A stretch of DNA of 32,000 nt from Pyrodictium abyssi (GTDB lineage Archaea; Thermoproteota; Thermoprotei_A; Sulfolobales; Pyrodictiaceae), in NCBI RefSeq assembly GCF_036323395.1, contig NZ_AP028907.1, forward strand, positions 180,001-212,000, in the 5' to 3' direction. Below are positions 9,346-23,685 of the stretch, in pieces (position 1 is the stretch's first letter; each line of letters begins with the position of its first letter). The notes beneath the pieces were generated by a model, which had not been told where the DNA came from, did not search any database, and saw only the letters and a list, made by a program, of their open reading frames with translations. The position numbers and the translations under genes are program-made.

Positions 9346-9346
9346 A

Positions 9347-10167: not shown

Positions 10168-10178
10168 TATAAAGAGCC

Positions 10179-10577
10179 TTACCAGTTCTCTTCCTCTACC
10201 TTCTTCACTCTGGATAGCTGTACATTCTGTAGTATTCTCCAGGCTTTGCCAGCAACGATGGAGAGAATCTCCTTGACGCCGCTACGTTTCTTGGCCCTCT
10301 TGAGTATCAGGTAGTTGTAGATGAATCTCTTTAGCGTAGGATCCGGGATTGTGTCTGCTATAGTCTTCAGCATGGCTAAAGTGCGGATTTCTTTATCCGA
10401 AAGCTCGGATAATGTTATTACTGCCTTGCCTTTGGGCATCGCTAGCATCTTGACGGCTATCCTCTGTGCACCAAAGAGGTCCTTATCCTCTTCGAAGTCG
10501 AAGTCTTCATCGATTTCTATATCGAAGTCGAGGGGGTCCTCTTCCTCTGCTCTTTCTCTCCTCTTACGGGCCGGCAT
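10179..10577 (-). CDS. Hypothetical protein with a highly acidic N-terminus
   Basis: 132 aa (EEEDPLDFDIEIDEDFDFEEDKD...). Tightly packed between the membrane protein and the ATPase genes, with 4-nt and 11-nt gaps. Confidence 0.6.
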   Translation of the reverse strand: MPARKRRERAEEEDPLDFDIEIDEDFDFEEDKDLFGAQRIAVKMLAMPKGKAVITLSELSDKEIRTLAMLKTIADTIPDPTLKRFIYNYLILKRAKKRSGVKEILSIVAGKAWRILQNVQLSRVKKVEEENW

Positions 10578-10581
10578 AGTA

Positions 10582-11208
10582 TCACCTTGCAGGCGCTATG
10601 GATACGTGATAGCCTAGCATGGGTAGGATAAAGAACTCCATGATGAACGCGAGAGTCATTCCGACAAGTAGCATCACGATCTGCTCTCCCTTCGTGGGCT
10701 GTATCTTGCCGACAAGCTTCTCTATTGTTCTGCTCGCAAAGTAGTTCTTGAGCACTATCGGGTGTATCATTGACGGTCCTATCTTCGCTTTACGAAGCTC
10801 TTGCTGTATCTCTTCGTCGTCGGGATCTTCGAATTCATAGACTATGTTTCTGTCCGCATCAACTATGATTACCGGCTCTGCTCTCCTACAATTGCTGTCT
10901 TTGCAGAATATGTAAGGCTCCATAGGCGGTAGCTTGTAGAGTCTTGTAGGAGTTATCAGTTCTCCGCTAGCTGTTAGCTTGCCTATGGTTTTCATGAGGA
11001 TCTTGCCGTTTCTTAGGAGAACAGTTACTCTATCCCCCCGTGTCCGCTGGAACGTCTTTACCCTGTTCAGAGCTGCGTATGCTAGCCGCATGGTTTGGTC
11101 TATTCTGGCAGTAGTTGCTATGAAGAGAACGAGTGCGAAGAATGCTATAGTTATGAGCACGTAGAGGATGCTAAGCAAAGCATCTTGTGGCAGACTCACC
11201 GGGCTCAT
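10582..11208 (-). CDS. Hypothetical membrane protein (N- and C-terminal TM helices)
   Basis: 208 aa. TM segments LSILYVLITIAFFALVLFIATTA and IVMLLVGMTLAFIMEFFILPMLG. First gene of the minus-strand operon. Confidence 0.6.
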   Translation of the reverse strand: MSPVSLPQDALLSILYVLITIAFFALVLFIATTARIDQTMRLAYAALNRVKTFQRTRGDRVTVLLRNGKILMKTIGKLTASGELITPTRLYKLPPMEPYIFCKDSNCRRAEPVIIVDADRNIVYEFEDPDDEEIQQELRKAKIGPSMIHPIVLKNYFASRTIEKLVGKIQPTKGEQIVMLLVGMTLAFIMEFFILPMLGYHVSIAPAR

Positions 11209-11305
11209 TATAGCTCCCGTAGCTCTATTGATCGTCCCTTACCTTTTCTTCGCCCTTTCCAGCTTTCATAAGCTGATGCTAGCTCACAGTTGCTAAGTCG
11301 AGAAT

Positions 11306-11330
11306 GTTTCCCTAAAGATCTAGGGGAGAA
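11306..11330 (+). repeat. Degenerate hairpin element H2 abutting a start codon
   Basis: GTTTCcctaaagatctaggggaGAAt, with inner CCCTA/TAGGG arms as in H16. Its 3' end overlaps the first base of the ATG at 11330. Confidence 0.5.
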
Positions 11331-12079
11331 TGCGAGCAATAGCACCCATTGTTGCTGCTGCAATACTAGCACTCATAGCTGGTGCTGGCATTACTGCCTA
11401 TGTGCTTTCTCGGCCCGCAGCTGAGGCTCCTCTCGCAGCTATAGGTACTGCGAACATTATCGCAAGCGTGGAGACCAGGTATATTGTTGAATACATGGTG
11501 TTTGCGAGCGATAAGATAGATCTTAAGGTGTACTTGAACGGAACAGATGTTGCAGACATATTCATCCTGGTACCTACCTCGAGTTCAGAGTACATGGTTG
11601 TCTATAACAAGTACGACTATCAAAGCGGTACTCTACTTGAGTTGAACTATATGAAGGAGTTCATAGTTCTAGCCTGGAGAGATGGCTATGTAGATGCGAT
11701 AATCGTGGACATGGAGAACCCGGCACCCGGAGAGGTACGCCTTCACACGACACATCATCCCGATCCTATGAGCTTGACGCAATATGTGAAGGTTACAAAG
11801 CGCTGGTGGGACATTCTCTGGGAGGGTTTTGCGGTACTATTTGAAATGATGACTGCCATGAAGTTTGTAATAGATATTGTCGTGGCTATGCTGCCCTATG
11901 CCGGAGCTATGTGGTCTGTCTGGCTTGTCTCCGCCATTTCGAAAGCGCTTAGAGACATGAGCATTGAACCTCTGATAGACTTCTTCTATAAGAACTACCA
12001 AATAGTGAGAGGGATAGTATCGGCAGTTACGCAGATAGTGCTCAAGATAATAGACTTGATAACCGGGCCGGCAACATAA
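11330..12079 (+). CDS. Hypothetical membrane protein
   Basis: 249 aa. N-terminal TM (AIAPIVAAAILALIAGAGITAYVL), a central soluble domain and C-terminal hydrophobic helices. Confidence 0.65.
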   Translation: MRAIAPIVAAAILALIAGAGITAYVLSRPAAEAPLAAIGTANIIASVETRYIVEYMVFASDKIDLKVYLNGTDVADIFILVPTSSSEYMVVYNKYDYQSGTLLELNYMKEFIVLAWRDGYVDAIIVDMENPAPGEVRLHTTHHPDPMSLTQYVKVTKRWWDILWEGFAVLFEMMTAMKFVIDIVVAMLPYAGAMWSVWLVSAISKALRDMSIEPLIDFFYKNYQIVRGIVSAVTQIVLKIIDLITGPAT

Positions 12080-12083
12080 CGTT

Positions 12084-12175
12084 ATTTCGCCTACAGGATC
12101 TCTGATGAAATCTTGCTTTCTACATGATTTCGCTATCCTCGAGAAGGAGAAACATGTCAGACTGATACTCTGACA
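12084..12175 (+). repeat. Hairpin elements H3 (12084-12111) and H4 (12127-12153), plus palindrome P2 (12155-12175)
   Basis: H3 is ATTTCgcctacaggatctctgatGAAAT. H4 is ATTTCgctatcctcgagaaggaGAAAC. P2 is TGTCAGActgatacTCTGACA (perfect). They lie between convergent genes. Confidence 0.85.
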
Positions 12176-12195
12176 GTCTCTACGAAAAGAGGATA

Positions 12196-12300
12196 TCATG
12201 TAAGGATGTCTGCCACGAGCTTTGCAAGCCTGTAGCCCAAGTAGCCGGCAAATCCGGCAGCAAATGCGTAGATAACAACTTCAAAGGGCTCTAAGCTCAA
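12196..12300 (-). CDS. Possible 34-aa hydrophobic peptide
   Basis: Hand-found. A TTG at 12300 overlaps the end of the upstream ORF (12281-12589). Translation is (M)SLEPFEVVIYAFAAGFAGYLGYRLAKLVADILT plus a stop. The only support is TM-like composition and start/stop overlap. Confidence 0.2.
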   Translation of the reverse strand: MSLEPFEVVIYAFAAGFAGYLGYRLAKLVADILT

Positions 12301-12589
12301 CCTCCCGCACCTCCTCGAGCATTTGATTCCCTACTGCGATTCCCTTCTGCCTTAGTAATTCCATTAGTTTCCTTGCTCGAGGATCGTCCTCGGGCTCAAC
12401 CCATACTACTAGCCTGTATTCCTCTGGTGGATGTTCATCTTTTTCCACAAAGAGCCAGGCTGATAGCTTTATCATAAGCTGTGGCACGTTTCTACCTCTG
12501 AAAGTTCTCTGGGCAGCTATCGTTGAGCGTCTACGGTGTATTAAGGCAGCTCTTACGGTTATAGGAGGTGTGCGTGGCGGTCCTCCCAT
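12281..12589 (-). CDS. Hypothetical protein
   Basis: 102-aa ORF with a basic N-terminus and an acidic C-terminal half. No recognisable family. Confidence 0.5.
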   Translation of the reverse strand: MGGPPRTPPITVRAALIHRRRSTIAAQRTFRGRNVPQLMIKLSAWLFVEKDEHPPEEYRLVVWVEPEDDPRARKLMELLRQKGIAVGNQMLEEVREVELRAL

Positions 12590-12683
12590 TAATGTGTCCC
12601 TTTACTCCTGTTTAGAGCCCGGTAAGCCGTGTTAAGCTTGTCGAGCTAATGTAAGCTGGTTCTAGTTCGCGGCTCAAGTATAG

Positions 12684-12995
12684 TTGTTGTTGGAGTTAGA
12701 ACGCATGGAGATGGGTATGTCTTTTATGAAACGGGTGAAGGAGAAGCTAGCTAAAGTAGGTCAAGAGTTCAAGGCACGGGCTAAAGCGATAGCAGTAGCG
12801 ACCCTAGGCATAGGGACAACTTTGCTAACTAAGGTGGCGCACGCTCAGACAACCATAGATACCAGTAGCATGACGGAGATGATATCAGCATTCCTACCGA
12901 TAATAATGAGCTTATTCGCTATAATGATTCCGCTAATGTTCTTTGGTAAGATAATGGAGTTCTTTGAGAGGCTACTACGCAGCTTTGGCGGCTAA
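12684..12995 (+). CDS. Small two-TM membrane protein (candidate virion/envelope protein)
   Basis: The likely start is one of the ATGs at 12705-12726. It has a signal-like TM (AIAVATLGIGTTLLTKVAHA). Its C-terminal anchor MTEMISAFLPIIMSLFAIMIPLMFFGKIME is paralogous to the anchor of the next gene. Confidence 0.65.
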   Translation: MLLELERMEMGMSFMKRVKEKLAKVGQEFKARAKAIAVATLGIGTTLLTKVAHAQTTIDTSSMTEMISAFLPIIMSLFAIMIPLMFFGKIMEFFERLLRSFGG

Positions 12996-13000
12996 TATCG

Positions 13001-13693
13001 GTGATAAGTATGCTAAGGCGGCTACTAGCAGTCTTTTTGGTGGCTCTTATAGCATTCAGCACCGTAGCAGCGGCGCAGACAGAGGTGCTAGTTCCCAGCG
13101 ACGTTAGCGGTCCGATGTGGTGGGACTTCAATGCACAAACGCCTACGGTGATTAAGCTACTGCCGAACCTACCAGGACCAGCGCCTAATGCAAGCGACAA
13201 CCTGCGAATCGGCTTCGTAACACAGACAAAAGAGGCCGGCGGAACATACGAGGTCATAACAATCCGCTTCAAGATAAACGGCATGATGACTGTAGGCAGT
13301 CCTAGGTATGGTGTGCCGGACCAGGAAGTGGCCCAGTGGAGTAACAATGAGACTGTAAAGGTTGTCATATTTGGCAACACTATGGAGGTATATGTAGGCA
13401 GCACTAAGGTATGGAGCTATGAGGCGAGCGAAGAGATCCCGGACATAAACTACGTGTATGCGGATAGCGCTACATTCGGAGTGCCGGCATTCGAAGGCGG
13501 CGGATACATAAAGATATACGTGGATGAGGAGGAGCTAAACTCCATCCTAATAAACTATCAAATGCGGGAAAGCATGAACGCGACAATGGAGCTCTTCACA
13601 GCGTTTATGCCGCTGTTGATGGTATTCGCAATATTCGGAATGTTTATGAAGTTCATGGGCAAGATAATGAATACGTTGGGGAGAGCATTTTGA
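13001..13693 (+). CDS. Secreted protein with a C-terminal membrane anchor
   Basis: Signal peptide LLAVFLVALIAFSTVAAAQ, a beta-rich ectodomain of about 170 aa, and the anchor TMELFTAFMPLLMVFAIFGMFMKFMGKIMN. Confidence 0.7.
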   Translation: MISMLRRLLAVFLVALIAFSTVAAAQTEVLVPSDVSGPMWWDFNAQTPTVIKLLPNLPGPAPNASDNLRIGFVTQTKEAGGTYEVITIRFKINGMMTVGSPRYGVPDQEVAQWSNNETVKVVIFGNTMEVYVGSTKVWSYEASEEIPDINYVYADSATFGVPAFEGGGYIKIYVDEEELNSILINYQMRESMNATMELFTAFMPLLMVFAIFGMFMKFMGKIMNTLGRAF

Positions 13694-14742
13694 AACCCAT
13701 AGCTCTTTTTATAGCGGTTCTTCTCCCCCTAGGCCTAATCGTTACTGCGCATGCTGAGCAGAATCCTATAGTAGCTGTCTACTTCTACGCATGGTATGGT
13801 GAGGGATTAGGAGGGAGACATTGGAACGACTCAGCTTATACGCCCATCGTGGATGAGCCGCTGATAGGCTACTATAGCAGCCTAGACCCGGACACGATCG
13901 AGTGGCAGCTAAGGCTACTCAAGCAAGCAGGCATAGACGTACTCTTCATAAGCTGGTGGGGCCCCAATAGCTACGAAGATAGAGCAGCTAGACTGGTCTT
14001 CGAGAACCTGAAGCGCTTCGACCTGAAGGCCGCTATACTGGTCGAGCCCTATCTGGGAGGAGATCCTAGCCTCTACGACTACGAGTGGTGGCTTCAAGTA
14101 CTAGATTACATAAAGAAGAACTACATAGATAAGTATCCGAGCGTCTACTTCCGCTGGGAGGGCAAGCCGCTAGTACTAGCGTACAACCCCATAGGGATGA
14201 AGTGCCGACCAAACACAGACGAGTTCACGGTGAGGATAGTCGGCAACGACATAGACAATGCTGGCTACCAGGACTGGGACCTATGGCCAGACTACCTAGC
14301 CCCATGGACCACAGACAAGCCCATAGAGCTCAGAGTACGACAGGACGGCTACGTGGCCATAGCACCACGCTTCGACGACAGGGTATTCTGCGAGCTAGGC
14401 GTAAGGACTGGCTGTGATCAAAGGCTCTTGGATCCAAATTACACGCTTCAAGCCTACGTGAAACAATGGGAGTGGATACTTCAGCATAAGGATCAAGTAA
14501 GGCTCATAGCGATTTATAGTTGGAACGAATATCACGAGCGCAGCCAGATAGAGCCTCATTACGACGCAACAAAGCCGGAGCCGCTGGTTTACGATCCCTA
14601 TGCATTAACAAGAGCATACACCGAGAAACTGCGCGGTATCGAGTATAGTAAAGAGTACAAAGCTTTAGCCCAGGGTCTAGGACAGATAATGGGTGTTGCC
14701 TTCCTTGCAGGTGCGGCTGCGCAGTTTATCCGGCGGGCTTAG
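13690..14742 (+). CDS. GH99-like glycoside hydrolase (endo-alpha-mannosidase family), secreted and C-terminally anchored
   Basis: Signal peptide, then VYFYAWYG...HWN, IGYYSSLDPDTIEWQLRLLKQAGIDVLFISWWGP, LKAAILVEPY and IAIYSWNEYHERSQIE. From memory these parallel the human MANEA motifs FYYSWYG...HWN, LGSYSSRDPSVIETHMRQMRSASIGVLALSWYPP, HIEPY and ITSFNEWHEGTQIE. The TTG start overlaps the previous stop (TTGA). Confidence 0.8.
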   Translation: MKPIALFIAVLLPLGLIVTAHAEQNPIVAVYFYAWYGEGLGGRHWNDSAYTPIVDEPLIGYYSSLDPDTIEWQLRLLKQAGIDVLFISWWGPNSYEDRAARLVFENLKRFDLKAAILVEPYLGGDPSLYDYEWWLQVLDYIKKNYIDKYPSVYFRWEGKPLVLAYNPIGMKCRPNTDEFTVRIVGNDIDNAGYQDWDLWPDYLAPWTTDKPIELRVRQDGYVAIAPRFDDRVFCELGVRTGCDQRLLDPNYTLQAYVKQWEWILQHKDQVRLIAIYSWNEYHERSQIEPHYDATKPEPLVYDPYALTRAYTEKLRGIEYSKEYKALAQGLGQIMGVAFLAGAAAQFIRRA

Positions 14743-14768
14743 TTTCTCTCCTCGATCCCTGGCGAAAC
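14742..14768 (+). repeat. Hairpin element H5
   Basis: GTTTCtctcctcgatccctggcGAAAC (27 nt). It starts at the last base of the GH99-like stop codon. Confidence 0.8.
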
Positions 14769-14803
14769 ACCTTGCAGTCTCAGCTCTGATTCTCCATGCT
14801 GCC

Positions 14804-15028
14804 ATGGGGCTCTATCTGGCTTGTTTAGCAGCCATTTACGATTCTACTAATATGGGATTTGTTCTTCTCATAGCATACCCGGTGCTTACCGTTAGTCTCT
14901 GGATAACTAAGCCACATGCAATGTTAGCCTTCATGGTTCTAATTGCAGCTTCCCTAAGCTTTCTTAAGCTGTTATGGACTCGAAGGTATCATTTCAAGTT
15001 ATTTGTAAGGCGTATTCTAGGGGGCTAA
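14804..15028 (+). CDS. Small hydrophobic membrane protein
   Basis: The track ORF 14693-15028 overlaps the GH99 gene and H5. The internal ATG at 14804 gives a 74-aa protein with 2-3 TM segments (MGLYLACLAAIYDS...). Confidence 0.45.
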   Translation: MGLYLACLAAIYDSTNMGFVLLIAYPVLTVSLWITKPHAMLAFMVLIAASLSFLKLLWTRRYHFKLFVRRILGG

Positions 15029-15895
15029 TTGGGCAAGAAGAAGAAAAAGGTCTACTTTGGCGATGATAGTATCTTCAAGGCGGTCAAGGACATAGGTAGA
15101 AAGGGGTTAAACACACGAGAGGAATTCATTGAATTAGTTGCTGCGCAAGTTCTCGACCTAGCAGATCTTAGGACTAGGAGAAATACTGGCCGGCCCGCTA
15201 AATGGACACTACAGCTCTGGAACCAACGCTGTTTTGTACTGAGAGAGTTGAATAAGAGGAAACGGTTTGGTCTGGCAGCTTTCGTAAGGAAAGCTTGCAG
15301 TCTTGGCAGGCGCATTCTGAGGTCTAAGGATAAGCTGCCTTACTACAAGCGTCTCAAGATACTTGCGAAATTCGGTATGTGGGTCTCCGAGAAGTATGGT
15401 GTCTCTCCTAGGACGCTTGCTCACATAATAAGGCGCGTGAATGAGAACGAGCGGCTTGTCCGTAAGCTTACGGAGTTCTTCTATCGGGAGCTTGGCAGGG
15501 AATTCAAGAGGCGTGGCATTTCTCCCCGTGTTGCTACTAGGCGTCTGAAGAAGCATATACGGCGTATAAGGAGCCTCTTCAACGATGAGGATAAACGTAT
15601 TGCTGCCTATCTCTGGGATATGATTCCAAAAAAGTATAGAAGCGGAGCCCGGAGGCTCTGGACTTATCTTCTAGTTCTTCACCTAGCAAGATGGATTCGC
15701 AAAAAGGCTAAGGAGTCTGGTGTTGATTGGCGCGATATTGACTGGGCAGCTGAGATCGACTGGAGACAGGGCTATTACTATGCTAAGAGCCGTGTCTTCG
15801 AGCTGTTAGGAATGCTAGGGAGTAAATACGAGGGTCTAACTGAGGAGGAGATTGAACAGATGATGGAGTACTGGGCTCAGAATGAGCGTATATGA
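15029..15895 (+). CDS. Highly basic protein with a helix-turn-helix-like segment
   Basis: 288 aa, with a TTG start immediately after the previous stop. Lys/Arg-rich; YGVSPRTLAHIIRRVN resembles an HTH. No family recognised. Confidence 0.7.
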   Translation: MGKKKKKVYFGDDSIFKAVKDIGRKGLNTREEFIELVAAQVLDLADLRTRRNTGRPAKWTLQLWNQRCFVLRELNKRKRFGLAAFVRKACSLGRRILRSKDKLPYYKRLKILAKFGMWVSEKYGVSPRTLAHIIRRVNENERLVRKLTEFFYRELGREFKRRGISPRVATRRLKKHIRRIRSLFNDEDKRIAAYLWDMIPKKYRSGARRLWTYLLVLHLARWIRKKAKESGVDWRDIDWAAEIDWRQGYYYAKSRVFELLGMLGSKYEGLTEEEIEQMMEYWAQNERI

Positions 15896-15988
15896 GCTAT
15901 CGTGAGCTTTCTTCAGCTTCACTAAGCTCTCGGAGAATCTGGCTGTGGATAGCGTATTCCGCTACCTTTTCTCCACCCGCTGAGAGCC

Positions 15989-18040
15989 ATGGTGCGTATA
16001 AGAGCCCTTCTAATACTAGCCCTCCTCCTAGTGCCCCTTGTCGGCCCAGTAATGCCGGCACACGCAGCAACAATACCGATAAGCGAAGTCGATGAAGCTA
16101 TCAGACTTGGCGTAGAAGCAGTATATCGAGCAGTAAGGCCCGTGGACACTTCATTCAGCAAGTATGTTATGCCAGACCACCCTAGCCCAACAATCTCAAT
16201 AGCGTATAATGGAAAGCTCTACGTGCCTGGCAGCTTCTTTGATCCCGGCGACTCCATCTATAAGACAGAACTCGTAAAAGTATCCAACAACATGGTAGCA
16301 TGGAGGTACTACTTCAATATAGACGACGACGATGACTACGATGTAGTAATCTATGCGGAGCTAACAAACATCGACTATAACATCGACAGGCTATACATCT
16401 ACATCGATAAGGCCGAATACAACATAGATGTCTATGTCGGCGCCTACTCCCCCTATAAGTACTTCAACGTCGGACAGGGATGGAGCACAACAATAGATAT
16501 CAACGACTGGAACAAGTACAAGTTCCACTCAGCTCGCTATGTTGCACGCCACAGCACCAGAATAGCCGCATGGCTGCTAGAGGATGAGGGAGCAAGCTAT
16601 ACTGCAAGCAAACTTCATAATCTCATGAATGGGTGTGGCTACACCTACGACGTATACGCTCCGATATTCGGGCGCAGCACCAGCTATCCCGACGACTTCT
16701 TTACTAGAGATGCTACATGGCTTGGCAACGGCTACAGCTGCCTACCATGGACTCTGAGCAAATACAGCTACTTCCTCAACTACCCCTACAAGAGCCGCAT
16801 GTACATATTCGACGCCTTTAGCAGCTATACCTATCATGCAGCCCTAAGAGCGTGGGAAGAGGCTCCACTAGCAAATCTGCTTAAGGCAATGCATCTTCTC
16901 GACAAGTATGGTGCCTCCAGAGCTAGCGAAGCTGAGCAGCTAATAGCCCAGGTAATTGAGGACGGGAAATGGGACGGCTACGGCATAAAGTACGCCTCCA
17001 TAGATGCCGGCTATGTAGCATCCGGCTACCACACCGGCCCCGAGATTCCTTATGGCTACGCGGGCTATCCCGTATACCTAAACGCAGCTCTGCTAGCTGC
17101 GCTAGTGAAATACTACCAGGTAACGGGAGACCGCTGGATAGCCGGCAACGATATACTCTACATGGCTGACAGGCTTGCCGGTATACTAGTGAAGCTTCAG
17201 TGGAAGTATGAGCACAAGACTCCATGGGGCTACGTGAGGCTAGCACTATTCCGCGGATGGTGGCCGGCGGCATACGAGATAGGCAGCCTAATCAGCAAGT
17301 CTAGCGCCTGGGGCATAATAGACACACTAACCCACACAGCCGACAACGTGGCCGGAATCCTGGCTAAAGTCGGCATAGACTTTCCCTCCGAGGCTCTGAG
17401 GCCTATGCCCAGCGAGTGGCCATTCGCAATAGTGAACAGCGAGTCTACAATACTCGCTATCCAGGCTCTGAAGCTCTACAGGCAGCTTGGCAGAGAGCCC
17501 ATAGACCCCATATCAGACGTAATAGCCGGGTTTGACGGCATCTTCGTGGAGAGTGGCGGTGGCGGGTATGCAGCGATAGGAGGCAGTCATGGCGGTGAGA
17601 CAAGCGATGACGGCCGCTGGATAGTAGCAAGCGCACTAGTTCCCGGTCTAAGCGGCGACGCATGGCATTACCAATACGCCAAGTTTAAGTTCAATCTGGA
17701 GAGCAGCGGCTACTACAAGCTGCGGATAGCGTCAATGGTCTCATATAATGGAAAAGACAGCTATGGCTCTAGCGCCTATGTCTACCTTGTCGTCAAGTTA
17801 CTGAACGCCTATGGTAATGTTGTTGCACAAGTAGAGAAGCTCGTAGACCATGTAGACGAGAACACGCTATTCAACAAGGCAAAGGCTGTAACCGTAGAGC
17901 TTGACACCGGCTACCTCACCAGCGGCACCTACTACGTCGAGATAGGGCTCAAGGTCGTGGCTGACAATAGCCCCATAAGCTGGGAGGGCGTGTGGATAAA
18001 CGGTAAGGTAGTAAACGATGAGATAGTTATAGCGCAGTAA
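15989..18040 (+). CDS. Large secreted protein (candidate virion adhesin or host-recognition protein)
   Basis: 683 aa. Signal peptide LLILALLLVPLVGPVMPAHA, an acidic run IDDDDDYDVV, Tyr/Asn-rich beta regions and a central helical region. No TM anchor. Confidence 0.8.
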   Translation: MVRIRALLILALLLVPLVGPVMPAHAATIPISEVDEAIRLGVEAVYRAVRPVDTSFSKYVMPDHPSPTISIAYNGKLYVPGSFFDPGDSIYKTELVKVSNNMVAWRYYFNIDDDDDYDVVIYAELTNIDYNIDRLYIYIDKAEYNIDVYVGAYSPYKYFNVGQGWSTTIDINDWNKYKFHSARYVARHSTRIAAWLLEDEGASYTASKLHNLMNGCGYTYDVYAPIFGRSTSYPDDFFTRDATWLGNGYSCLPWTLSKYSYFLNYPYKSRMYIFDAFSSYTYHAALRAWEEAPLANLLKAMHLLDKYGASRASEAEQLIAQVIEDGKWDGYGIKYASIDAGYVASGYHTGPEIPYGYAGYPVYLNAALLAALVKYYQVTGDRWIAGNDILYMADRLAGILVKLQWKYEHKTPWGYVRLALFRGWWPAAYEIGSLISKSSAWGIIDTLTHTADNVAGILAKVGIDFPSEALRPMPSEWPFAIVNSESTILAIQALKLYRQLGREPIDPISDVIAGFDGIFVESGGGGYAAIGGSHGGETSDDGRWIVASALVPGLSGDAWHYQYAKFKFNLESSGYYKLRIASMVSYNGKDSYGSSAYVYLVVKLLNAYGNVVAQVEKLVDHVDENTLFNKAKAVTVELDTGYLTSGTYYVEIGLKVVADNSPISWEGVWINGKVVNDEIVIAQ

Positions 18041-18058
18041 GCCCCTAGCTCTTTTTTC

Positions 18059-18107
18059 CTTTCCTCTTCTGCCTGTATGTGAAACTTGTCAGACTCTAGT
18101 TCTGACG
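18059..18107 (+). repeat. Degenerate hairpin H6 (18059-18085) plus palindrome P3 (18087-18107)
   Basis: H6 is cTTTCctcttctgcctgtatgtGAAAC. P3 is TGTCAGActctagtTCTGACg. Confidence 0.75.
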
Positions 18108-18191
18108 CTAGTTCTAAATCGGAATAAGAAGCAGAGGAGAAGCGGGCTCAGCGATTATCTCATCATTACCCGCTTTGCCCGGTGGCCCGCT

Positions 18192-19166
18192 ATGCCCCAG
18201 AGTAACACGTCTCGAAGAGATAGTAGAGAACCTAGCCCTGGTACTGCACAAGGACACTACCGGCCTAGCGAGCTCATTCTACGCTATATAGTTGAAGAGA
18301 AGGTCTCCTTCTTCCGGCTCGAGGAGATACGCTACTGGGCAAAGAAGCGCTACGGAGTAGACATAGACAGGAGGAGGCTCCATGATGCGGCAAAGAGGCT
18401 TACTGCTCGGGGCGTCTTCGAGAAGCCTTCGAGAGGCCTATATCATGTAAAAGACTGGGCAGCTGTCCACATGCTAGTTTCACTCTCCTCGAGAAAGAGA
18501 AACAATGAAGCCCTTGAGGGCCAAGAAGGGATTCACCTACAGGCTAGAGGTGAAAACGTCCTTGAGCCGCGTCAGAACATGAGTCGGACGGACGCGGGCG
18601 CGGCGGGGCGGGCTGGGCGGCGGGTGTCTGAGCGGTGTTCTGACAGGTTGCGGCGGTTTGTGCCTGTTCTCGCTACGGAGGAGGGGTGTTGGACGGTTCT
18701 TCGCTGGCATCTTAATGCGCGTCGGGAGAGGGTTTGGGACTGGCTGTGGGATCTCTTCGAGAGGGCGGTTGCTTTTCGGGAGCTATTCTCTTGGATTGTT
18801 AGATGGCTTAGGGAGGAGCTGCACCGTATGGGGGCGTCTAAGTACGAGATCCGGAGGCGGGTTAGGCGGGTTCTGCAGCGTGTTAGGAGGCTGCTTTCGA
18901 GGGTTAGGCCCGTGATTGGTGCTCATTATAGGAAGAGGTTCTGGCCCCTGGGGGATCTTCTCCGCTTGTTTGGTGCTGAGGAGAGGCTGCCCAGGATGGA
19001 GTTCGGGGTAGAGCTTTGGGCTTGCGGTGAGGGGGCGGTGGAGGCTGCGCGGGAGGGCTACGAGGTCTTTGGGAGCCAGGACGTGTATACTCCGAACGCA
19101 TACAAGCATAATACTCCGGAGCATGCTCAGTATAGGCTGCGGCTGCGTTATCATCCTAGGCACTAG
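18192..19166 (+). CDS. Hypothetical protein: N-terminal winged-helix-like domain plus an Arg/Trp-rich C-terminal half
   Basis: 324 aa. LILRYIVEEKVSFFRLEEIRYWAKKRYGVDIDRRRLHDAAKRLTARGVFEKPSRGLYHV looks like a wHTH. Composition changes sharply after about 18590. Contains hairpin H7 in frame. Confidence 0.65.
   Translation: MPQSNTSRRDSREPSPGTAQGHYRPSELILRYIVEEKVSFFRLEEIRYWAKKRYGVDIDRRRLHDAAKRLTARGVFEKPSRGLYHVKDWAAVHMLVSLSSRKRNNEALEGQEGIHLQARGENVLEPRQNMSRTDAGAAGRAGRRVSERCSDRLRRFVPVLATEEGCWTVLRWHLNARRERVWDWLWDLFERAVAFRELFSWIVRWLREELHRMGASKYEIRRRVRRVLQRVRRLLSRVRPVIGAHYRKRFWPLGDLLRLFGAEERLPRMEFGVELWACGEGAVEAAREGYEVFGSQDVYTPNAYKHNTPEHAQYRLRLRYHPRH
18477..18503 (+). repeat. Hairpin element H7 (intragenic)
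   Basis: GTTTCactctcctcgagaaagaGAAAC (27 nt), in frame within 18192-19166, where it encodes VSLSSRKRN. Confidence 0.75.
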
Positions 19167-19167
19167 G

Positions 19168-19260
19168 ATTTCGCTTCTTAGCCTGTATGCGAAACGCTAG
19201 GGGACGCTAGGTTTCTCCTGTCGACAACACTGCGAAATCTGTCAGAGCGGGGCTCTGACA
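19168..19260 (+). repeat. Hairpin elements H8 (19168-19195) and H9 (19211-19238), plus palindrome P4 (19240-19260)
   Basis: H8 is ATTTCgcttcttagcctgtatgcGAAAC. H9 is GTTTCtcctgtcgacaacactgcGAAAT. P4 is TGTCAGAgcggggcTCTGACA (perfect). Confidence 0.85.
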
Positions 19261-19326
19261 AGGTAAGTGGATTAGCTTCGCTTTGCACCGGCTTACGGTT
19301 TAGTAGCTGTTATTCGGTCATCGGGC

Positions 19327-20457
19327 TTGTCAGAGTTGGGCTCTGACGCTGGTTTTGTAGCCTTCGAGGGGCAAATAGGAAGGTGGGTGCTCTTTGTGGA
19401 GGGGAGGGTTAAGGTTGCTAGGCTGGTGGAGATAGACGGTAGGCCCTACGTAGTGATAGACGGCGCGTTGATCCCCATTGAGGTTTCGCCCGGGAGCTCG
19501 CAGGCGAAACAGGAGAGGCCGGAGCTTCGCTTTGAGCTGAGTGAAGAGGTCCTCGAGCGCTACCGTAGGTGGCTTCCCAGCGAGCAACGAAGTTACCGAG
19601 CCAGGGACCCGGAAACCATAGAGAAGTATATCAGCTATTTAAAGAAGTTCTATGAGTGCAGTAATGGGGTTATATCGCCTGAGACGATTATGAAGTGTGT
19701 TACGAATAAGCACTATGTGAGGGCGTTAAGAGCGTTCGTGGAGATGTTGAGGTACTATGGAGAGGTGTCGCGGCACCTGGCTCTTGAGATCCTTGAGAGG
19801 CTTAGGTGGAGCCGGAATGATAGGATTGGCGAGGATATTGTTCCGGTTTCCCGGGTGCTCGAGAGCATAGCATTCGTCGAGGAGGAAGGGCTTCCGCTGT
19901 ACCAGCTGCTCTATAGGGCTATGCTCTATAGTGGCGGTATCCGGCTGGAGCAGTTCTTCGAGCTAGTGCCCTACGAGGATCATTACTGGCTGTGGAGGGG
20001 AGCGGAGCCCCGGCCCTTTGGCAGGTATAACGCTGTTAAGGCTCTCGAGGACCGTGGGGTAGCCTCGAAGCCTGTGGACCATATATGGCTGCCTGAGGAG
20101 GTTTACCGGGGGCTTAGGGGGCTTGATCCTGATTTCCTTCCGAAGCCGGGAGCGGCTAGGAAGTTCTATAGCCGGCATAAGCTGGTAGGCCCGACATTGA
20201 TTCGTAGCTTCTGCTGGCAAGTTGCGAAGTTTCTCCTGCCCGACAAGAATCTTGCTAGGATGCTGCAGGGGAGGCTTGGAGAGCTTAAGCGCGAGGTATC
20301 CGCGGGGAGCTATGACGCGCTCCGTTATCAGCTCGATCAGCTATACCCGCTTTGGATGCGCTTCGTGGACAGGCTCTACGAGGCGGCCAGGCGTGGTAAG
20401 CCTCTCGAGGAGGCGCGGAGGATAGTCGCTGAGTACCGCTTGCCCCTCCCACCTTAG
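19327..20457 (+). CDS. int: Tyrosine recombinase (integrase), intact
   Basis: 376 aa. Core-binding-like helices (IEKYISYLKKFYE..., ALRAFVEMLRYYG). Candidate catalytic residues are LYSGGIRLEQ (Arg I), TLIRSFCWQ (Arg II), MLQGRLG and SAGSYDAL (Tyr). The exact start is uncertain: TTG 19327 lies inside palindrome P5. Confidence 0.85.
   Translation: MSELGSDAGFVAFEGQIGRWVLFVEGRVKVARLVEIDGRPYVVIDGALIPIEVSPGSSQAKQERPELRFELSEEVLERYRRWLPSEQRSYRARDPETIEKYISYLKKFYECSNGVISPETIMKCVTNKHYVRALRAFVEMLRYYGEVSRHLALEILERLRWSRNDRIGEDIVPVSRVLESIAFVEEEGLPLYQLLYRAMLYSGGIRLEQFFELVPYEDHYWLWRGAEPRPFGRYNAVKALEDRGVASKPVDHIWLPEEVYRGLRGLDPDFLPKPGAARKFYSRHKLVGPTLIRSFCWQVAKFLLPDKNLARMLQGRLGELKREVSAGSYDALRYQLDQLYPLWMRFVDRLYEAARRGKPLEEARRIVAEYRLPLPP
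19328..19348. promoter_or_regulatory. Palindrome P5 overlapping the annotated integrase start
   Basis: TGTCAGAgttgggcTCTGACg. Same family as P1-P4, positioned at the 5' end of int. Confidence 0.6.
19483..19510 (+). repeat. Hairpin element H10 (intragenic, in int)
   Basis: GTTTCGCCcgggagctcgcaGGCGAAAC (28 nt, 8-bp perfect arms, central GAGCTC), in frame, encoding VSPGSSQAKQ. Confidence 0.8.
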
Positions 20458-20459
20458 CG

Positions 20460-20487
20460 GTTTCGCCTAGGAGCTCGTTGGTGAAAC
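20460..20487 (+). repeat. Hairpin element H11
   Basis: GTTTCgcctaggagctcgttggtGAAAC (28 nt). It starts 3 nt after the integrase stop. Confidence 0.85.
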
Positions 20488-20494
20488 TGGGGCT

Positions 20495-20575
20495 GGGCCG
20501 CGGGGATGATGAGTACGGCAGGATCGGATCCGTGAAGAGCGGACTTAACGCTGACCCTCCCGGGACCCGCGGCCC
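20495..20575 (+). ncRNA. Dual-guide C/D box sRNA candidate (core 20506-20554)
   Basis: C box ATGATGA (20506-12), 12-nt guide gtacggcaggat, D' cgga, 3-nt linker, C' gtgaaga (20532-38), 12-nt guide gcggacttaacg, D box CTGA (20551-54). This is the canonical archaeal 7-12-4-3-7-12-4 layout. A perfect 9-bp outer helix (gggccgcgg 20495-503 with ccgcggccc 20567-75) encloses it. Both guides are complementary to conserved 16S rRNA segments (see findings). Confidence 0.6.
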
Positions 20576-20753
20576 TCTGGTTTACCCTACTCTATACTAA
20601 GAGGTATATGGGTTGCGCCCGGCTATACTATAGTGTACTCGAGGGCCCGGCTGCCCCTCTCGACGGGTCGGGGACCCGGGGTGAAGGGATGAGCCGGCCC
20701 GGGAGGCGGGGATTGTCGTGAACCGCCTCCTTCAATGCTCTGACACTCCTAGG

Positions 20754-20876
20754 GTTTCCCCTTCTCGATCCCTGGGGAAACCGGGCCCTGGCGGGGGGTT
20801 TCGCCTTCCTCGAGGAGGGTGAAACCGGCCCTTCCCCTGGAGGGTAGGGTTTCGCTTACAGGCCTGTATGTGAAAT
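20754..20876 (+). repeat. Hairpin elements H12 (20754-20781), H13 (20798-20825) and H14 (20849-20876)
   Basis: H12 is GTTTCcccttctcgatccctgggGAAAC. H13 is GTTTCgccttcctcgaggagggtGAAAC. H14 is GTTTCgcttacaggcctgtatgtGAAAT. A TCTGACA half-site lies at 20739-20745. Confidence 0.85.
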
Positions 20877-20920
20877 AGTGTCGGCTTCCTCTTTCTGTCC
20901 ACCAAAAACAATAAGTAGGT

Positions 20921-20932
20921 GTAACTAGTTAC
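20921..20932. promoter_or_regulatory. Perfect 12-bp palindrome GTAACTAGTTAC upstream of the small-gene operon (candidate operator)
   Basis: It lies between an A-rich TATA-like stretch (aaaaacaataag, about 20904-20915) and the GTG/ATG starts at 20949/20958. Confidence 0.4.
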
Positions 20933-20948
20933 GACTACTTGGCTGCGG

Positions 20949-21269
20949 GTGTGGGGTATGGGGAGTCTACGGGAGGCTCTCATCTTCCTCGCAAATAAGC
21001 CTCAAGCGCTACGTCTTCTCCGCGAGGCTGCGAGGTACAAGGCTTCAAAGGGTAAGCCGCCGTACACTAGAGAGCTTCTCAAGCTGGCAGCCAACGGGGA
21101 CCGCGGCTACAGTATGCGGCTGCTAGAGGAGCTGCAGGCGCTGGGGCTTCTGCGGCGCTACCGGGATTATCTTAGCGATAAGCTGCGCATACCTGTTGTC
21201 CGCAACGATCCCACACCTTTGGCTCACAAGGTTCTAGCACTCTTCGAGGAGGAGGATGAAAATGCCTAG
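20949..21269 (+). CDS. Winged-helix DNA-binding protein
   Basis: 106 aa (GTG 20949 or ATG 20958). TRELLKLAANGDRGYSMRLLEELQALGLLRR looks like an HTH plus wing. Acidic tail. Confidence 0.65.
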   Translation: MWGMGSLREALIFLANKPQALRLLREAARYKASKGKPPYTRELLKLAANGDRGYSMRLLEELQALGLLRRYRDYLSDKLRIPVVRNDPTPLAHKVLALFEEEDENA

Positions 21270-21708
21270 GCCTCCACGGCTTGATAAGGTAATAGCGTTT
21301 GCCCATAAGCTGGCTAGCGATCTTGAGGTAGGGTATCGGGAGCTTGCCGGGATTCGTGGGGAGCTTCTGCGCGTCTCTGAGCTTCTGCGGGATGTCGAGG
21401 TTCTGGAGGCTAGTGTGATCGAGAAGAGTAGGAATGGCTCGGTGTACAGGGTTCTGCAGGTGAAGAGGCCTGGGACGGGCTTTTTCGAGGGAGGCGTGCT
21501 GTCTGTCTATGTTACCCGTAAGCCCGAGCTTGGCGATCTTGTAGTGAGGCTTGTTCATCTCCGTAATGTCTATGCTGAGTGGGTTAAGGCTACTATTAGC
21601 TTGCTTGACGCGTTGGAGAGGACTCCTAGCTTGCTTGAGGAATACAAGCGGCTTGTTTCTCCTACAGGATCTCCGGCGAAACAGGAGGTGAGGGCTCGTG
21701 GATCCTAG
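21256..21708 (+). CDS. Hypothetical protein
   Basis: 150 aa. The start overlaps the previous gene by 14 nt. Contains H15 in frame near its 3' end. Confidence 0.6.
   Translation: MKMPRPPRLDKVIAFAHKLASDLEVGYRELAGIRGELLRVSELLRDVEVLEASVIEKSRNGSVYRVLQVKRPGTGFFEGGVLSVYVTRKPELGDLVVRLVHLRNVYAEWVKATISLLDALERTPSLLEEYKRLVSPTGSPAKQEVRARGS
21655..21682 (+). repeat. Hairpin element H15 (intragenic)
   Basis: GTTTCtcctacaggatctccggcGAAAC (28 nt), in frame, encoding VSPTGSPAKQ, and followed by aggagg. Confidence 0.8.
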
Positions 21709-21847
21709 GGAGCTTGCGGAGATTGAGCAGGAGCTGAGAGAGGCTCGAGAGTTCTTCGCAGAGCGGGGGTACTGGCTCATGGTCTGGTACATAGACGATA
21801 CACTGAGGCTAATAGAGAGGATGAAGGAGGGGAGGAGTAATGGCTCT
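21698..21847 (+). CDS. Possible 49-aa ORF
   Basis: Hand-found. GTG 21698 overlaps the preceding stop region. Translation is VDPRELAEIEQELREAREFFAERGYWLMVWYIDDTLRLIERMKEGRSNGS. Its stop overlaps the RHH gene start (ATG 21840). Support comes only from operon packing. Confidence 0.25.
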
Positions 21848-22049
21848 TAGAACGATCACCGTTAAGCTCGATGACGAGATTGTATCTCTTCTCGACGACA
21901 TCTATAGGAAGCTTGGCTACAATTACCGCAGCGATGTAATAAGAGAAGCACTGGAGGATTGGCTGCGGCGGCATGGATTCAAGGTTAACCTCAGCGTTTC
22001 TCGACCAAGGCATAATGATAGAGGTCTAGTGTTTGAGGTGGAGGTGTAG
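21840..22049 (+). CDS. Ribbon-helix-helix (CopG/Arc/MetJ-type) transcriptional regulator
   Basis: MALRTITVKLDDEIVSLLDDIYRKLGYNYRSDVIREALEDWLRRHG has the classic beta-strand, helix, helix pattern. Confidence 0.8.
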   Translation: MALRTITVKLDDEIVSLLDDIYRKLGYNYRSDVIREALEDWLRRHGFKVNLSVSRPRHNDRGLVFEVEV

Positions 22050-22052
22050 ACC

Positions 22053-22313
22053 ATGACCAGGCTATATCTCTGCGGGTGCTGGCTCGAGGTTAAGGACTGC
22101 AGCTTGCACAAGGCATTGCTGAGGAGTCTTGCCGACATCTACGAGCATGACGTGCTACTCATGGAGGGTGCGCCGGTCTCCATCGACTGTAGGCGGCTGG
22201 CCGCGGACTTCGAAGAGTTCCTGCACGACTATGGTGCCCGGCACTGCCGCGTCGAGCCCGTCGATCCGGCTGAGTGGCGCCGCCCCGAGGAGACGCTACT
22301 TCCGACATTCTAG
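22053..22313 (+). CDS. Hypothetical Cys-containing protein
   Basis: 86 aa. Starts 3 nt after the RHH stop. No family recognised. Confidence 0.55.
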   Translation: MTRLYLCGCWLEVKDCSLHKALLRSLADIYEHDVLLMEGAPVSIDCRRLAADFEEFLHDYGARHCRVEPVDPAEWRRPEETLLPTF

Positions 22314-22326
22314 GGGGTGGGTGGCT

Positions 22327-22755
22327 ATGCCGGTCTTCCTTCTAGCTAATGGCCGCCGGGTTACGCTCTCGAGGGCCCTAGTAGAGCGGGTTGTTACTAC
22401 GAGGCTCTCTAACTGCTTCTCTCCGCAGTGCTACATGTCGAAGGAGGAGTACCTAGCGTGCATAGAGTGGATCACAGGGAGGAGAAGCGAGGCTCCAGGG
22501 CACGCGCGTACATGCATCTACCACATGCTGTTCTACAGCGAGAACCTGGTTCTAACAAACTACATGTTCTTGAGGTCGCTGCGCGACCCAGCGGCGCCAG
22601 AGTACCTAGACTCTATGCTGAGGCTACTCGAGGAGATACGCCGACTAGCAGAGGAGGCCTATCAGCACCTAGCAGCTAGCCGCTATAGCGAGGCTCAGAG
22701 ACTGGCCATCGAGATTCTAGACAAGCTCCTAAGATGGGGAATAGACCCATGGTAG
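22327..22755 (+). CDS. Hypothetical protein
   Basis: The track ORF 22129-22755 overlaps the previous gene out of frame. The internal ATG at 22327 (MPVFLLANGRR...) gives 142 aa with a helical C-terminus. Confidence 0.6.
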   Translation: MPVFLLANGRRVTLSRALVERVVTTRLSNCFSPQCYMSKEEYLACIEWITGRRSEAPGHARTCIYHMLFYSENLVLTNYMFLRSLRDPAAPEYLDSMLRLLEEIRRLAEEAYQHLAASRYSEAQRLAIEILDKLLRWGIDPW

Positions 22756-22758
22756 GGG

Positions 22759-23019
22759 GTGTCTTGCATGTCGGCTGACTGCCGCCGTTGCCGGTTCTTT
22801 ATCCCCCTTGAGAGGATGGATCATGATAGCATAGTGAGGGCTGAGAAGTGGCTTCAATGGATGCAGAAGAACGGGAAGAGGCAGGGTCATAGGATCCTGG
22901 GATGGTGCGGTAGGTATGAGAGGCCGGTAACCTACTATGTTGGCCGCTGCACGGGCTTCTCCCCCTATGCCGATAGACCGGCGGTGAAGAGTATACTCGA
23001 CTATCTTCGGGGCAGCTAG
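22759..23019 (+). CDS. Small Cys-rich (putative zinc-binding) protein
   Basis: 86 aa with CRRC...GWCGRYERPVTYYVGRC. GTG start 3 nt after the previous stop. Confidence 0.55.
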   Translation: MSCMSADCRRCRFFIPLERMDHDSIVRAEKWLQWMQKNGKRQGHRILGWCGRYERPVTYYVGRCTGFSPYADRPAVKSILDYLRGS

Positions 23020-23040
23020 CTCTTTCTTATTAAGAGGAGG

Positions 23041-23127
23041 TGTCAGAGTTCTACTCCGGCATCTTGTTTCTCCCTAGATCCTGTAGGGGAAACTCTCGGG
23101 TTTCTCCCTTCTCGAGGAGGGTGAAAC
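23041..23127 (+). repeat. Degenerate palindrome P6 (23041-23061), plus hairpins H16 (23066-23093) and H17 (23100-23127)
   Basis: P6 is TGTCAGAgttctacTCcGgCA. H16 is GTTTCtccctagatcctgtagggGAAAC. H17 is GTTTCtcccttctcgaggagggtGAAAC. Confidence 0.85.
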
Positions 23128-23132
23128 GCTGC

Positions 23133-23300
23133 TCAACGTAACTTCCTTAGGCATAGGCGCCCTCTTCCATCTATCTCCCAGATTAGATAGTCGCCTTTGC
23201 TCAGCTTTGTACGTTCCACGAACTCTTTGGGTAGATGTATGAAGAGGACTTCTCCATGTGGGGTCTTCTTTGCCTGAACCCTGACCAGGCGGGGCTGCAT
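23133..23300 (-). CDS. SpoVT/AbrB-family small DNA-binding protein
   Basis: Too short for the ORF track. Hand translation from the ATG at 23300 gives MQPRLVRVQAKKTPHGEVLFIHLPKEFVERTKLSKGDYLIWEIDGRGRLCLRKLR (55 aa). IHLPKEFVE...KGDYLIWEIDGRGRLCL is a typical AbrB swapped-hairpin pattern. Confidence 0.7.
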   Translation of the reverse strand: MQPRLVRVQAKKTPHGEVLFIHLPKEFVERTKLSKGDYLIWEIDGRGRLCLRKLR

Positions 23301-23310
23301 ACTCTCACGG

Positions 23311-23328
23311 TCTGTACAGTCTGTACAG
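23311..23328. promoter_or_regulatory. Tandem TCTGTACAG x2 (each containing the palindrome CTGTACAG) just upstream of the AbrB-like gene
   Basis: tctgtacagtctgtacag lies 11-28 nt upstream of the ATG at 23300 on the gene's strand, which is an operator-like position. Confidence 0.4.
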
Positions 23329-23390
23329 TGATACTATGTAAGCCTCTCTAGCCATGGTAGCGCTTGCTAGAGGTCCTTTTCGGCTGGGAC

Positions 23391-23446
23391 GCGGGCCTCT
23401 CGAGCCCGTGACCCGGGTTCAAATCCCGGCCGCGGCACCAACCCTC
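23391..23446 (+). repeat. attR: 56-bp direct repeat (partial tRNA-Glu 3' copy)
   Basis: Identical to 8878-8933. It lacks the tRNA 5' half, so it is not a functional tRNA. Confidence 0.9.
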
Positions 23447-23685
23447 AATACCCTCCCCCTTGTTCTGGCCATTCCTCCGCCCAGGTACGGGGCTGCCGAC
23501 GTGATAGCCCTGTTACACTGGTTTGAGCTTTGTAGGAGAGCACGTGCCTGTAACGGCACCTAGGGCTTGGATAGACCCGTCATACAGTACATATTGTACA
23601 TCCAGCGTATATCGTCTTTGGCTACAGTCTTTTAAAGAAGGGTGGAGAACGCAACTACTGTGGCTATGAGGGCCTCTGTGTGTCT

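Follow-up and report, generated by a model that had tools for sequence, protein, structure and literature searches.

The window analysed here, a 32,000-nt stretch of the Pyrodictium abyssi genome (NZ_AP028907.1, positions 180,001 to 212,000), carries a complete, dual-guide archaeal box C/D small RNA (sRNA) at positions 20495-20575 of its forward strand. The architecture of this RNA, its location within an integrated element, the complementarity of its guides to the 16S rRNA of close relatives, and the retention of its boxes and pairing positions in unrelated elements are directly established. We consider it probable that the sequence encodes a methylation-guide sRNA and forms accessory cargo of a provirus which resembles Aeropyrum pernix ovoid virus 1 (APOV1) and is integrated in a tRNA-Glu gene of this archaeon. 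Box C/D guide RNA genes do not appear to have been seen on archaeal mobile elements before. Molecule and mechanism are of standard type; what is new is that an archaeal virus or integrated element acts as carrier, and one of the targets is possibly new as well. An earlier reading by a model, made from the nucleotide letters without database searches (the sequence-only reading), had proposed an element-borne guide RNA directed at 16S rRNA, and this proposal is supported in every part that can be tested computationally.

Box C (AUGAUGA, 20506-20512) lies near the 5′ end of the RNA and box D (CUGA, 20551-20554) near its 3′ end. Both conform perfectly to consensus, and both align with the corresponding boxes of the Rfam C/D models and of a Pyrobaculum profile described below. 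A 3-bp canonical stem (GGG 20503-20505 / CCC 20555-20557), evident in the Rfam alignment, adjoins the two boxes, and a short stem of this kind normally closes the C/D kink-turn (k-turn). The internal boxes D′ (CGGA, 20525-20528) and C′ (GUGAAGA, GTGAAGA in the DNA, 20532-20538) each deviate from consensus (CUGA and RUGAUGA, respectively) at a single position and are separated by a loop of 3 nt (tcc, 20529-20531), as in a k-loop. Two spacers of exactly 12 nt complete the unit, namely the D′ guide gtacggcaggat (20513-20524; GUACGGCAGGAU in the RNA) and the D guide gcggacttaacg (20539-20550; GCGGACUUAACG in the RNA), all on the forward strand. Both deviating boxes have cellular precedents: D′ variants of the form NNGA, including CGGA and CCGA, are present in archaeal sRNAs verified by RNA-seq, and GTGAAGA is a frequent C′ box among the sRNAs of Pyrobaculum calidifontis (PMC4644070). 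The sequence that had been quoted for this unit, with its perfect C and D boxes, single deviations in C′ and D′ and exact spacers, occurs letter for letter in the window. The perfect outer helix that had also been described is likewise present, although folding extends it from nine to ten base pairs; its GC arms GGGCCGCGGG (20495-20504) and CCCGCGGCCC (20566-20575) enclose the whole unit and are fully paired in all three copies of the sRNA discussed below.

The layout RTGATGA-N12-NNGA-N3-8-TGANGA-N12-CTGA, searched on both strands, occurs once in the window and not at all in 9.6 Mb of simulated sequence (300 x 32 kb, first-order Markov). At a permissive threshold, about a dozen archaeal C/D families of Rfam match over their full length at 20502-20557 (+) and nowhere else in the 32-kb window, with snoPyro_CD (RF00095) giving the best match (28.9 bits; E = 5e-4 when 600 nt were scanned and 0.029 over the whole window). 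An independent profile was constructed from 48 aligned, RNA-seq-supported P. calidifontis sRNAs, with sR19 left out, drawn from the supplementary data in Dennis et al. (2015, PMC4644070). This Pyrobaculum profile matches positions 20507-20554 end to end with zero indels (19.4 bits; E = 3.7e-5), and since the runner-up in the window reaches 5.5 bits (E = 1.2), the sRNA is its sole significant match. In 489 kb of control loci, E-values below 0.1 were obtained only for the two other copies of the same sRNA. The sequence is thereby confirmed as a genuine archaeal box C/D sRNA and not a chance motif. Inspection by eye of 20576-20948 for a second, degenerate C/D unit revealed no fitting boxes and spacings, and neither Rfam nor the Pyrobaculum profile produced a match there.

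Candidate targets were read from 16S rRNA genes recovered in a degenerate-pattern genome scan, which comprised at least 113 starts, mostly crenarchaeal, among the matches listed, along with a few bacterial chance matches. The matches listed include neither the 16S rRNA gene of P. abyssi nor the sRNA locus. Pairing was scored on the 16S rRNA of a Pyrodictiaceae metagenome-assembled genome (L066), of Ignicoccus pacificus (L072, full operon) and of Thermogladius (L051), which serve as family-level proxies for the host, and Escherichia coli numbering follows the E. coli line of the 16S alignment in PMC4644070. In all three relatives, the D′ guide pairs with the extreme 16S 5′ end, AUCCUGCCGGAC, through nine contiguous base pairs, which occupy guide positions 1-9 as numbered from box D′; beyond them lie a single mismatch and two further pairs (11/12). 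Its 9-bp core target AUCCUGCCG corresponds to E. coli positions 16-24 and its N+5 nucleotide to U20. Within the central pseudoknot, we assign positions 16-24 to one strand (the 5′ one). The D guide forms ten contiguous pairs (positions 2-11) with GGUUAAGUCCGG in the loop of helix 37 of the same three rRNAs, the 10-nt target GUUAAGUCCG corresponding to E. coli 1089-1098 and the N+5 nucleotide to A1092. On the 16S rRNA of relatives, both guides reach the published minimum for a target, an unbroken run of nine Watson-Crick pairs around N+5 (PMC6009581). The sequence-only reading had named both sites, as well as the two N+5 nucleotides, and the register in the relatives bears out each of these. 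It had, however, overlooked a further candidate site of the D guide (CGUUAAGCCCGC, E. coli 866-877), at which 11/12 positions pair, with an A:C mismatch at position 8 and A870 as the N+5 nucleotide.

This second segment resembles a target predicted in another archaeon. In Methanopyrus kandleri (Mka) the 866-877 segment reads ...AAGUCCGC, which would offer the provirus D guide a perfect 12/12 match, and the D′ guide of Mka sR91, AGGCGGACUUAA, has 10 nt in common with the provirus D guide; the methylation predicted for sR91 falls on 16S G856 in the CCGUUAAGUCCGCC segment, at about E. coli 866-877 (PMC4644070). Among the matches listed, 44 16S sequences cover this segment, mostly from Thermoproteota and including that of the Pyrodictiaceae genome. 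None of them reads AAGUCCGC, with its U, while 35/44 read AAGCCCGC. In the likely host, the D guide therefore has its better match in the loop of helix 37.

When shuffled guides are compared with the Ignicoccus 16S-23S sequence, they attain the observed run lengths with p = 0.07 for the D′ guide and p = 0.011 for the D guide (joint p ~8e-4), in keeping with the earlier argument that two guide matches to one RNA are unlikely to arise by chance. Furthermore, the two 16S sites are the best matches across the full Ignicoccus 16S-23S operon, and no target of at least 9 nt exists for either guide elsewhere in the 32-kb window. These results, together with features of the element itself, make it improbable that the RNA is directed at something other than 16S rRNA, whether a host tRNA, an mRNA of the host or of a rival virus, or DNA in the manner of TIGR-Tas systems. 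Such a role would find some room in that the target search covered the rRNA of relatives and the window rather than host tRNAs, 23S rRNA and mRNAs, in that many archaeal guides are orphans or directed at tRNA (PMC7994747), and in that RNA-guided systems with Nop-domain proteins occur on archaeal viruses (PMC12045711). The latter, TIGR-Tas, employ dual-spacer guide RNAs bound by Nop-domain proteins, are frequent on phages and archaeal viruses and share an evolutionary link with box C/D ribonucleoproteins (RNPs) (PMC12045711). Their guide RNAs are, however, encoded as tandem 36-nt units with spacers of about 9 nt, lack k-turn boxes, adjoin a Tas gene and target DNA, and the provirus sRNA shows none of these features. 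It is a single unit, Tandem Repeats Finder returned nothing relevant in 19000-23500, and none of 20 open reading frames (ORFs) from the element that were compared against Pfam has a Nop domain. A TIGR-Tas identity was therefore ruled out, the array and the Nop protein being absent and the k-turn boxes and 12-nt spacers, foreign to such guides, being present.

The element in which the sRNA is located extends over ~14.5 kb (8934-23390), flanked on either side by a copy of a perfect direct repeat of 56 nt (8878-8933 / 23391-23446). The left copy overlaps the 3′ half of an intact tRNA-Glu(CUC) gene (8850-8927, +; ARAGORN; Rfam tRNA: 60 bits), which represents attL, while the right copy is the duplicated, 100% identical 3′ half of this gene (23391-23446, +; partial tRNA match at 23370-23430) and represents attR. 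The GC content declines from 0.53-0.62 in the flanks to 0.47-0.50 over 9-17 kb. More than ten ORFs of the provirus match APOV1 (Guttaviridae), including those for a 683-aa protein (55% amino acid identity), a GH99-like protein (48%) and a DnaA-like ATPase (31%; phrog_5484, E = 2e-23), and the gene content further includes small regulators of the ribbon-helix-helix (RHH) and MazE/AbrB types. An SSV-family tyrosine integrase (19327-20457, +; phrog_5127, E = 7e-9) is encoded by a gene that remains intact after integration. It is 100% identical to the P. abyssi protein P0001, annotated in UniRef as "Integrase SSV1 C-terminal domain-containing protein", and its distant homologues carry PF16795. In a metagenomic relative, L002, the right-end genes are joined to the left-end genes across a tRNA-like attP, a junction that by its gene order represents an element of this kind in circular form. 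The tRNA-Glu repeats, the APOV1 genes, the integrase and the L002 junction together place the sRNA, the outer helix of which begins 37 nt after the integrase stop codon (20457), inside one bona fide integrated, guttavirus-like element, as the sequence-only reading had supposed. Against GenBank phages, megablast of the provirus gave a match only at the tRNA-Glu att site and tblastn of the integrase gave none, while the 683-aa virion-module protein has no relative in IMG/VR. APOV1 itself has no sRNA of this kind.

Relatives of the integrase are found on seven contigs (55-77% amino acid identity), among them L002, L003, L004, L006, L146 and L148. The sRNA is present in L003, a sister provirus from a metagenome which also adjoins tRNA-Glu, and occupies the same position there. 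Nucleotide identity between the two proviruses amounts to 73% in the integrase gene and ~61% in the 150 nt located 3′ of the sRNA, compared to 79/81 positions in the sRNA unit; both differences fall in the 3′ linker, leaving the boxes and guides unchanged. No target-site duplication was seen when the sRNA-bearing region was compared with the empty sites in L148 and L146, and the indel boundaries of the sRNA module are not cleanly definable there.

A pattern scan of JGI metagenomes yielded one further copy, in L145, where the sRNA is located 8 nt after an ORF for a 57-aa MazE/AbrB-like protein. About 1 kb away, an SSV1-type integrase fragment from the N-terminus (PF07935, scoring above threshold) overlaps a tRNA-Ala gene, which is the signature of SSV-type integration. 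L145 and the window have no protein in common. The L145 sRNA differs only at positions 10-11 of the D′ guide, which are unpaired with 16S rRNA in either version, by a 4-nt deletion in the 3′ linker and by one compensatory swap of G-C to C-G in the outer helix. The apparent remnant in L145 (737-3300, ~2.7 kb, adjoining tRNA-Ala(GGC)) encodes, besides the sRNA, PadR-like winged helix-turn-helix, zinc-ribbon and MazE/AbrB-like proteins, and is followed by host genes for NMD3 and a thiamine-binding protein. Scans of IMG/VR for either guide together with the boxes gave chance matches only, in tRNA ends and coding sequence, and no copy of the sRNA; the crenarchaeal 16S 5′ end likewise had no match in IMG/VR.

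A number of observations weigh against the interpretation of this RNA as a provirus-borne guide for host 16S rRNA. Every Rfam match remains below the gathering score of its family (snoPyro_CD, 28.9 vs 45 bits; sR2, 26 vs 42; sR1, 23 vs 45), such that the check by a C/D model which the sequence-only reading had called for succeeded with the Pyrobaculum profile and gave full-length Rfam matches, but not Rfam matches of gathering strength. The pairing with 16S rRNA rests on family-level proxies of P. abyssi. Helix 37 reads CCUGUUAAGUCAGG in 8/29 of the covering 16S sequences among the matches listed, one of them labelled Desulfurococcaceae, and since this variant would leave the D guide with eight pairs, P. 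abyssi itself need not offer the D match. The two targets are, moreover, ~1,030 nt apart, while those of most dual-guide sRNAs lie within 100 nt of each other (PMC6009581). Five of the seven integrase relatives (L002, L004, L006, L146 and L148) lack the sRNA, which is therefore dispensable for the element. Between the window and L003, the ORF that follows likewise reaches 90% identity, and the high identity of the sRNA is thus by itself no proof of selection. Finally, three copies are known, and the compensatory pair in the outer helix is not statistically significant (165/500 shuffles reach it).

The low Rfam scores are expected, as the models are specific to other guides, and they signify that the sRNA is no member of snoPyro_CD or of the named Sulfolobus and Pyrococcus sR families. 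They are also what might be cited in favour of a chance motif or a dead, unexpressed relic, which we regard as highly improbable: the layout is absent from the simulated sequence, the unit is the sole significant match of the independent profile in the window, with only its other copies detected in the control loci, and it recurs in three contexts with its boxes intact.

Chromosomal sRNAs with near-identical D′ guides identify the 5′-terminal segment of 16S rRNA as an established guide target. In P. calidifontis, sR19 (GUGAUGA-AUUCGGCAGGAG-UUGA) has a D′ target listed as 16S U15, which is E. coli U20 and therefore the same nucleotide (PMC4644070). The Ignicoccus hospitalis (Iho) sRNA sR58 (GUGAGGA-CUCCGGCAGGAG-CCGA; PMC4644070) points to U20 as well, according to a register count made here, while the predicted target of Mka sR23 is the neighbouring U12 (PMC4644070). 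These three sRNAs are of the same class and geometry as the provirus sRNA, and all four have the D′ guide core CGGCAGGA in common. The cellular sRNAs are, however, chromosomal and carry a second guide for a site ~25 nt away (G42 or G35), whereas the second guide of the provirus sRNA is for helix 37, ~1,030 nt away. With the D′ core and target in common but the D guide and genomic context different, and no homology outside the target-constrained guide core, the provirus sRNA is best regarded as a functional analogue of the sR19/sR58 family, possibly composite, and not as a demonstrated orthologue. A guide for the helix 37 loop is present in none of the sRNA sets of the seven species in PMC4644070. 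The specificity of the D guide may thus be new, and with a D′ guide that duplicates a common cellular specificity and a D guide absent from the seven sets, the provirus RNA looks composite.

These comparisons bear directly on the origin of the gene. A captured host origin is likely for the D′ guide, and the whole RNA could be conceived as a passenger only, a C/D sRNA that works or worked until recently, taken from a Pyrodictiaceae chromosome or assembled from two host sRNAs, which duplicates a host methylation, is of no advantage to the element and is spread horizontally by mobile elements. We regard this as possible, though doubtful. It accords with the fact that other Thermoproteota encode the D′ specificity on the chromosome (Iho sR58 and Pca sR19, the latter from P. 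calidifontis), with the sporadic distribution of the sRNA, which occurs in 2/7 related elements and one unrelated element, and with the composite sRNAs, the transposed sRNAs and the transposon-like sRNA copies documented in Pyrobaculum (PMC6009581). A neutral passenger would, however, be expected to decay, whereas the boxes and the pairing guide positions are invariant in three copies situated in diverged or unrelated contexts. The missing helix 37 guide in the seven sets furthermore implies that half or more of the RNA may be new. The passenger and cargo interpretations partly overlap, as the molecule would work alike in both.

The Pyrobaculum copies merit comparison in their own right. In P. 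calidifontis, C/D sRNA copies resembling miniature inverted-repeat transposable elements (MITEs) consist of inverted repeats around an sRNA-like core and were described with no mention of viruses (Lui et al. 2018, PMC6009581). They resemble the present case in that archaeal C/D sRNA genes can be mobilised, but differ in that ~15 copies are dispersed in the chromosome with degenerate boxes and orphan or tRNA guides, whereas here each integrase-bearing element has one intact copy with rRNA guides.

The position of the sRNA behind the integrase gene allows a further interpretation, in which it acts in cis on the integrase transcript as an L7Ae-bound k-turn and hairpin, serving as a 3′ stabiliser, terminator or translational regulator, and the complementarity to 16S rRNA is incidental. 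The 37-nt distance to the integrase stop codon, the unusually long 10-bp GC helix and the lack of an own promoter are in accordance with such an element, and L7Ae is reported to bind k-turns in mRNAs (PMC5539422). We nevertheless judge it a rather improbable explanation. One k-turn would suffice for this purpose, and the full C/D and C′/D′ set with two exact 12-nt spacers would be unneeded; the guides are kept where they pair with 16S rRNA and vary only elsewhere; and in L145 the unit trails a different gene, that for the MazE/AbrB-like protein. Furthermore, the helix is followed by no T-tract other than TTT, and its fold is unexceptional (z-score: -0.97).

The preferred reading, a methylation guide encoded on a provirus, would entail the following route. 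Transcription would yield the sRNA as part of the integrase mRNA, in its 3′ trailer, as is suggested by the lack of an AT-rich promoter upstream and by all three copies trailing a same-strand ORF, at distances of 8-57 nt. Most archaeal sRNA genes are without promoters, and a location just 3′ of a same-strand ORF is the commonest arrangement, with the flanks dispensable for maturation (PMC7994747). An AT-rich, TATA-like stretch which follows the sRNA (20588-20612, +), and which alignments show also in L003, L146 and L148, probably serves the next transcription unit as its promoter, in which case the integrase transcript would end with the sRNA. Host L7Ae would then bind the C/D k-turn and the C′/D′ k-loop, Nop5 and fibrillarin would assemble on it, and exonucleases would trim the flanks, with the 10-bp outer helix probably protecting or delimiting the precursor. 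The resulting RNP would pair with nascent 16S rRNA, where the D′ guide would cover E. coli positions 16-24 (the 3′ strand of helix 1) and direct 2′-O-methylation of U20, while the D guide would cover the helix 37 loop and direct methylation of A1092, and may also bind the near-identical 866-877 sequence. A chaperone effect on the 16S 5′ end would be possible, and either the virus or the host might benefit.

Full-text literature searches recovered no papers linking box C/D sRNAs to archaeal viruses, proviruses, plasmids or integrases. The earlier statement that a guide RNA against host rRNA had not been described on a viral element therefore stands for archaea in the searchable literature, but not for viruses in general, as Epstein-Barr virus (EBV) encodes a box C/D snoRNA, v-snoRNA1, discovered in 2009 (PMC2718842). 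Data from 2026 attribute to v-snoRNA1 the 2′-O-methylation of host 18S-C621 and 28S-U1760, with effects on translation and a requirement in virus production (PMC13597479). The likeness lies in a viral box C/D guide that uses the host fibrillarin RNP. The EBV RNA, however, belongs to a eukaryotic herpesvirus and is intron-encoded and nucleolar, whereas the present RNA is archaeal, has symmetric dual guides, belongs to a small temperate virus of a hyperthermophile and has a function that is predicted.

One and the same intact sRNA unit, present on both an APOV1-like provirus and an unrelated SSV-type element, would directly indicate that rRNA methylation guides travel on viruses and integrated elements and are exchanged among them, and would provide an archaeal counterpart of EBV v-snoRNA1 (PMC13597479). 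A more far-reaching proposal, which we put forward as speculation and hold to be unlikely, is that temperate archaeal viruses or integrated elements reprogramme the host small subunit by means of a guide that uses the host RNP, placing a methyl group at the helix 37 loop and adding or reinforcing one at the central-pseudoknot strand. If true, the folding of 16S rRNA or translation could be tuned for lysogeny or virus production, as with EBV v-snoRNA1, or alternatively 16S rRNA could be rendered resistant to a ribonuclease toxin, since a 2′-O-methyl group blocks cleavage at that bond. On this proposal, mobile elements would also be the long-sought vehicle by which C/D sRNA genes spread horizontally. 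The case lends itself to direct tests, since P. abyssi is available as a cultured strain.

Additional features of the element and its relatives can be observed outside the sRNA. Although homology places the integrase in the SSV family, its gene is unsplit, and the attP/tRNA-like segment adjoins a different ORF (8876-9313), as seen at the L002 junction (5944-6407). A stretch of 25 nt just inside attL (8931-8955) recurs in inverted orientation with 96% identity at 20941-20965, where it spans the GTG start of the ORF at 20949-21269, located 370 nt 3′ of the sRNA; a similar sequence is found in L002 upstream of the homologous ORF. This inverted copy may mark a promoter or 5′ end common to both places, or may be left over from an inversion or recombination. 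Between the sRNA and this ORF lies a GC-rich insertion of ~100 nt (20640-20740, +) with an 8-bp hairpin (GGAGGCGG...CCGCCTCC), which is not found in L003 or L002 and which yields no Rfam or C/D profile match. Near-threshold matches to the Rfam eL15-Euryarchaeota ribosomal protein leader in L004 (8464-8525, -; 30.9 bits) and L006 (1435-1488, -; 29 bits), against a gathering score of 33.7, may reflect another structured RNA or chance. In the Pyrodictiaceae genome L066, a KaiC-like gene is located upstream of the 16S rRNA gene, and this synteny is not conserved.

The intergenic regions of this provirus family are dense in short GTTTC...GAAAC palindromes, which in the window are located at 9397-9426, 20460-20487, 20756-20781, 20796-20825, 20850-20875, 21655-21686 and 23062-23127, one of them thus falling between the integrase stop codon and the sRNA. 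The relatives L002, L146 and L148 also carry TGTCAGAG...CTCTGACA palindromes. These palindromes are probably operator sites for the RHH and AbrB/MazE-like regulators of the element. Lastly, the GH99-like protein (13690-14742, +) is a secreted-looking product of 350 aa that combines a GH99-like domain (PF16317, E = 4e-15) with a C-terminus resembling WbsX, and is 48% identical to the corresponding region of APOV1, which suggests a capacity for glycan remodelling in this virus family.

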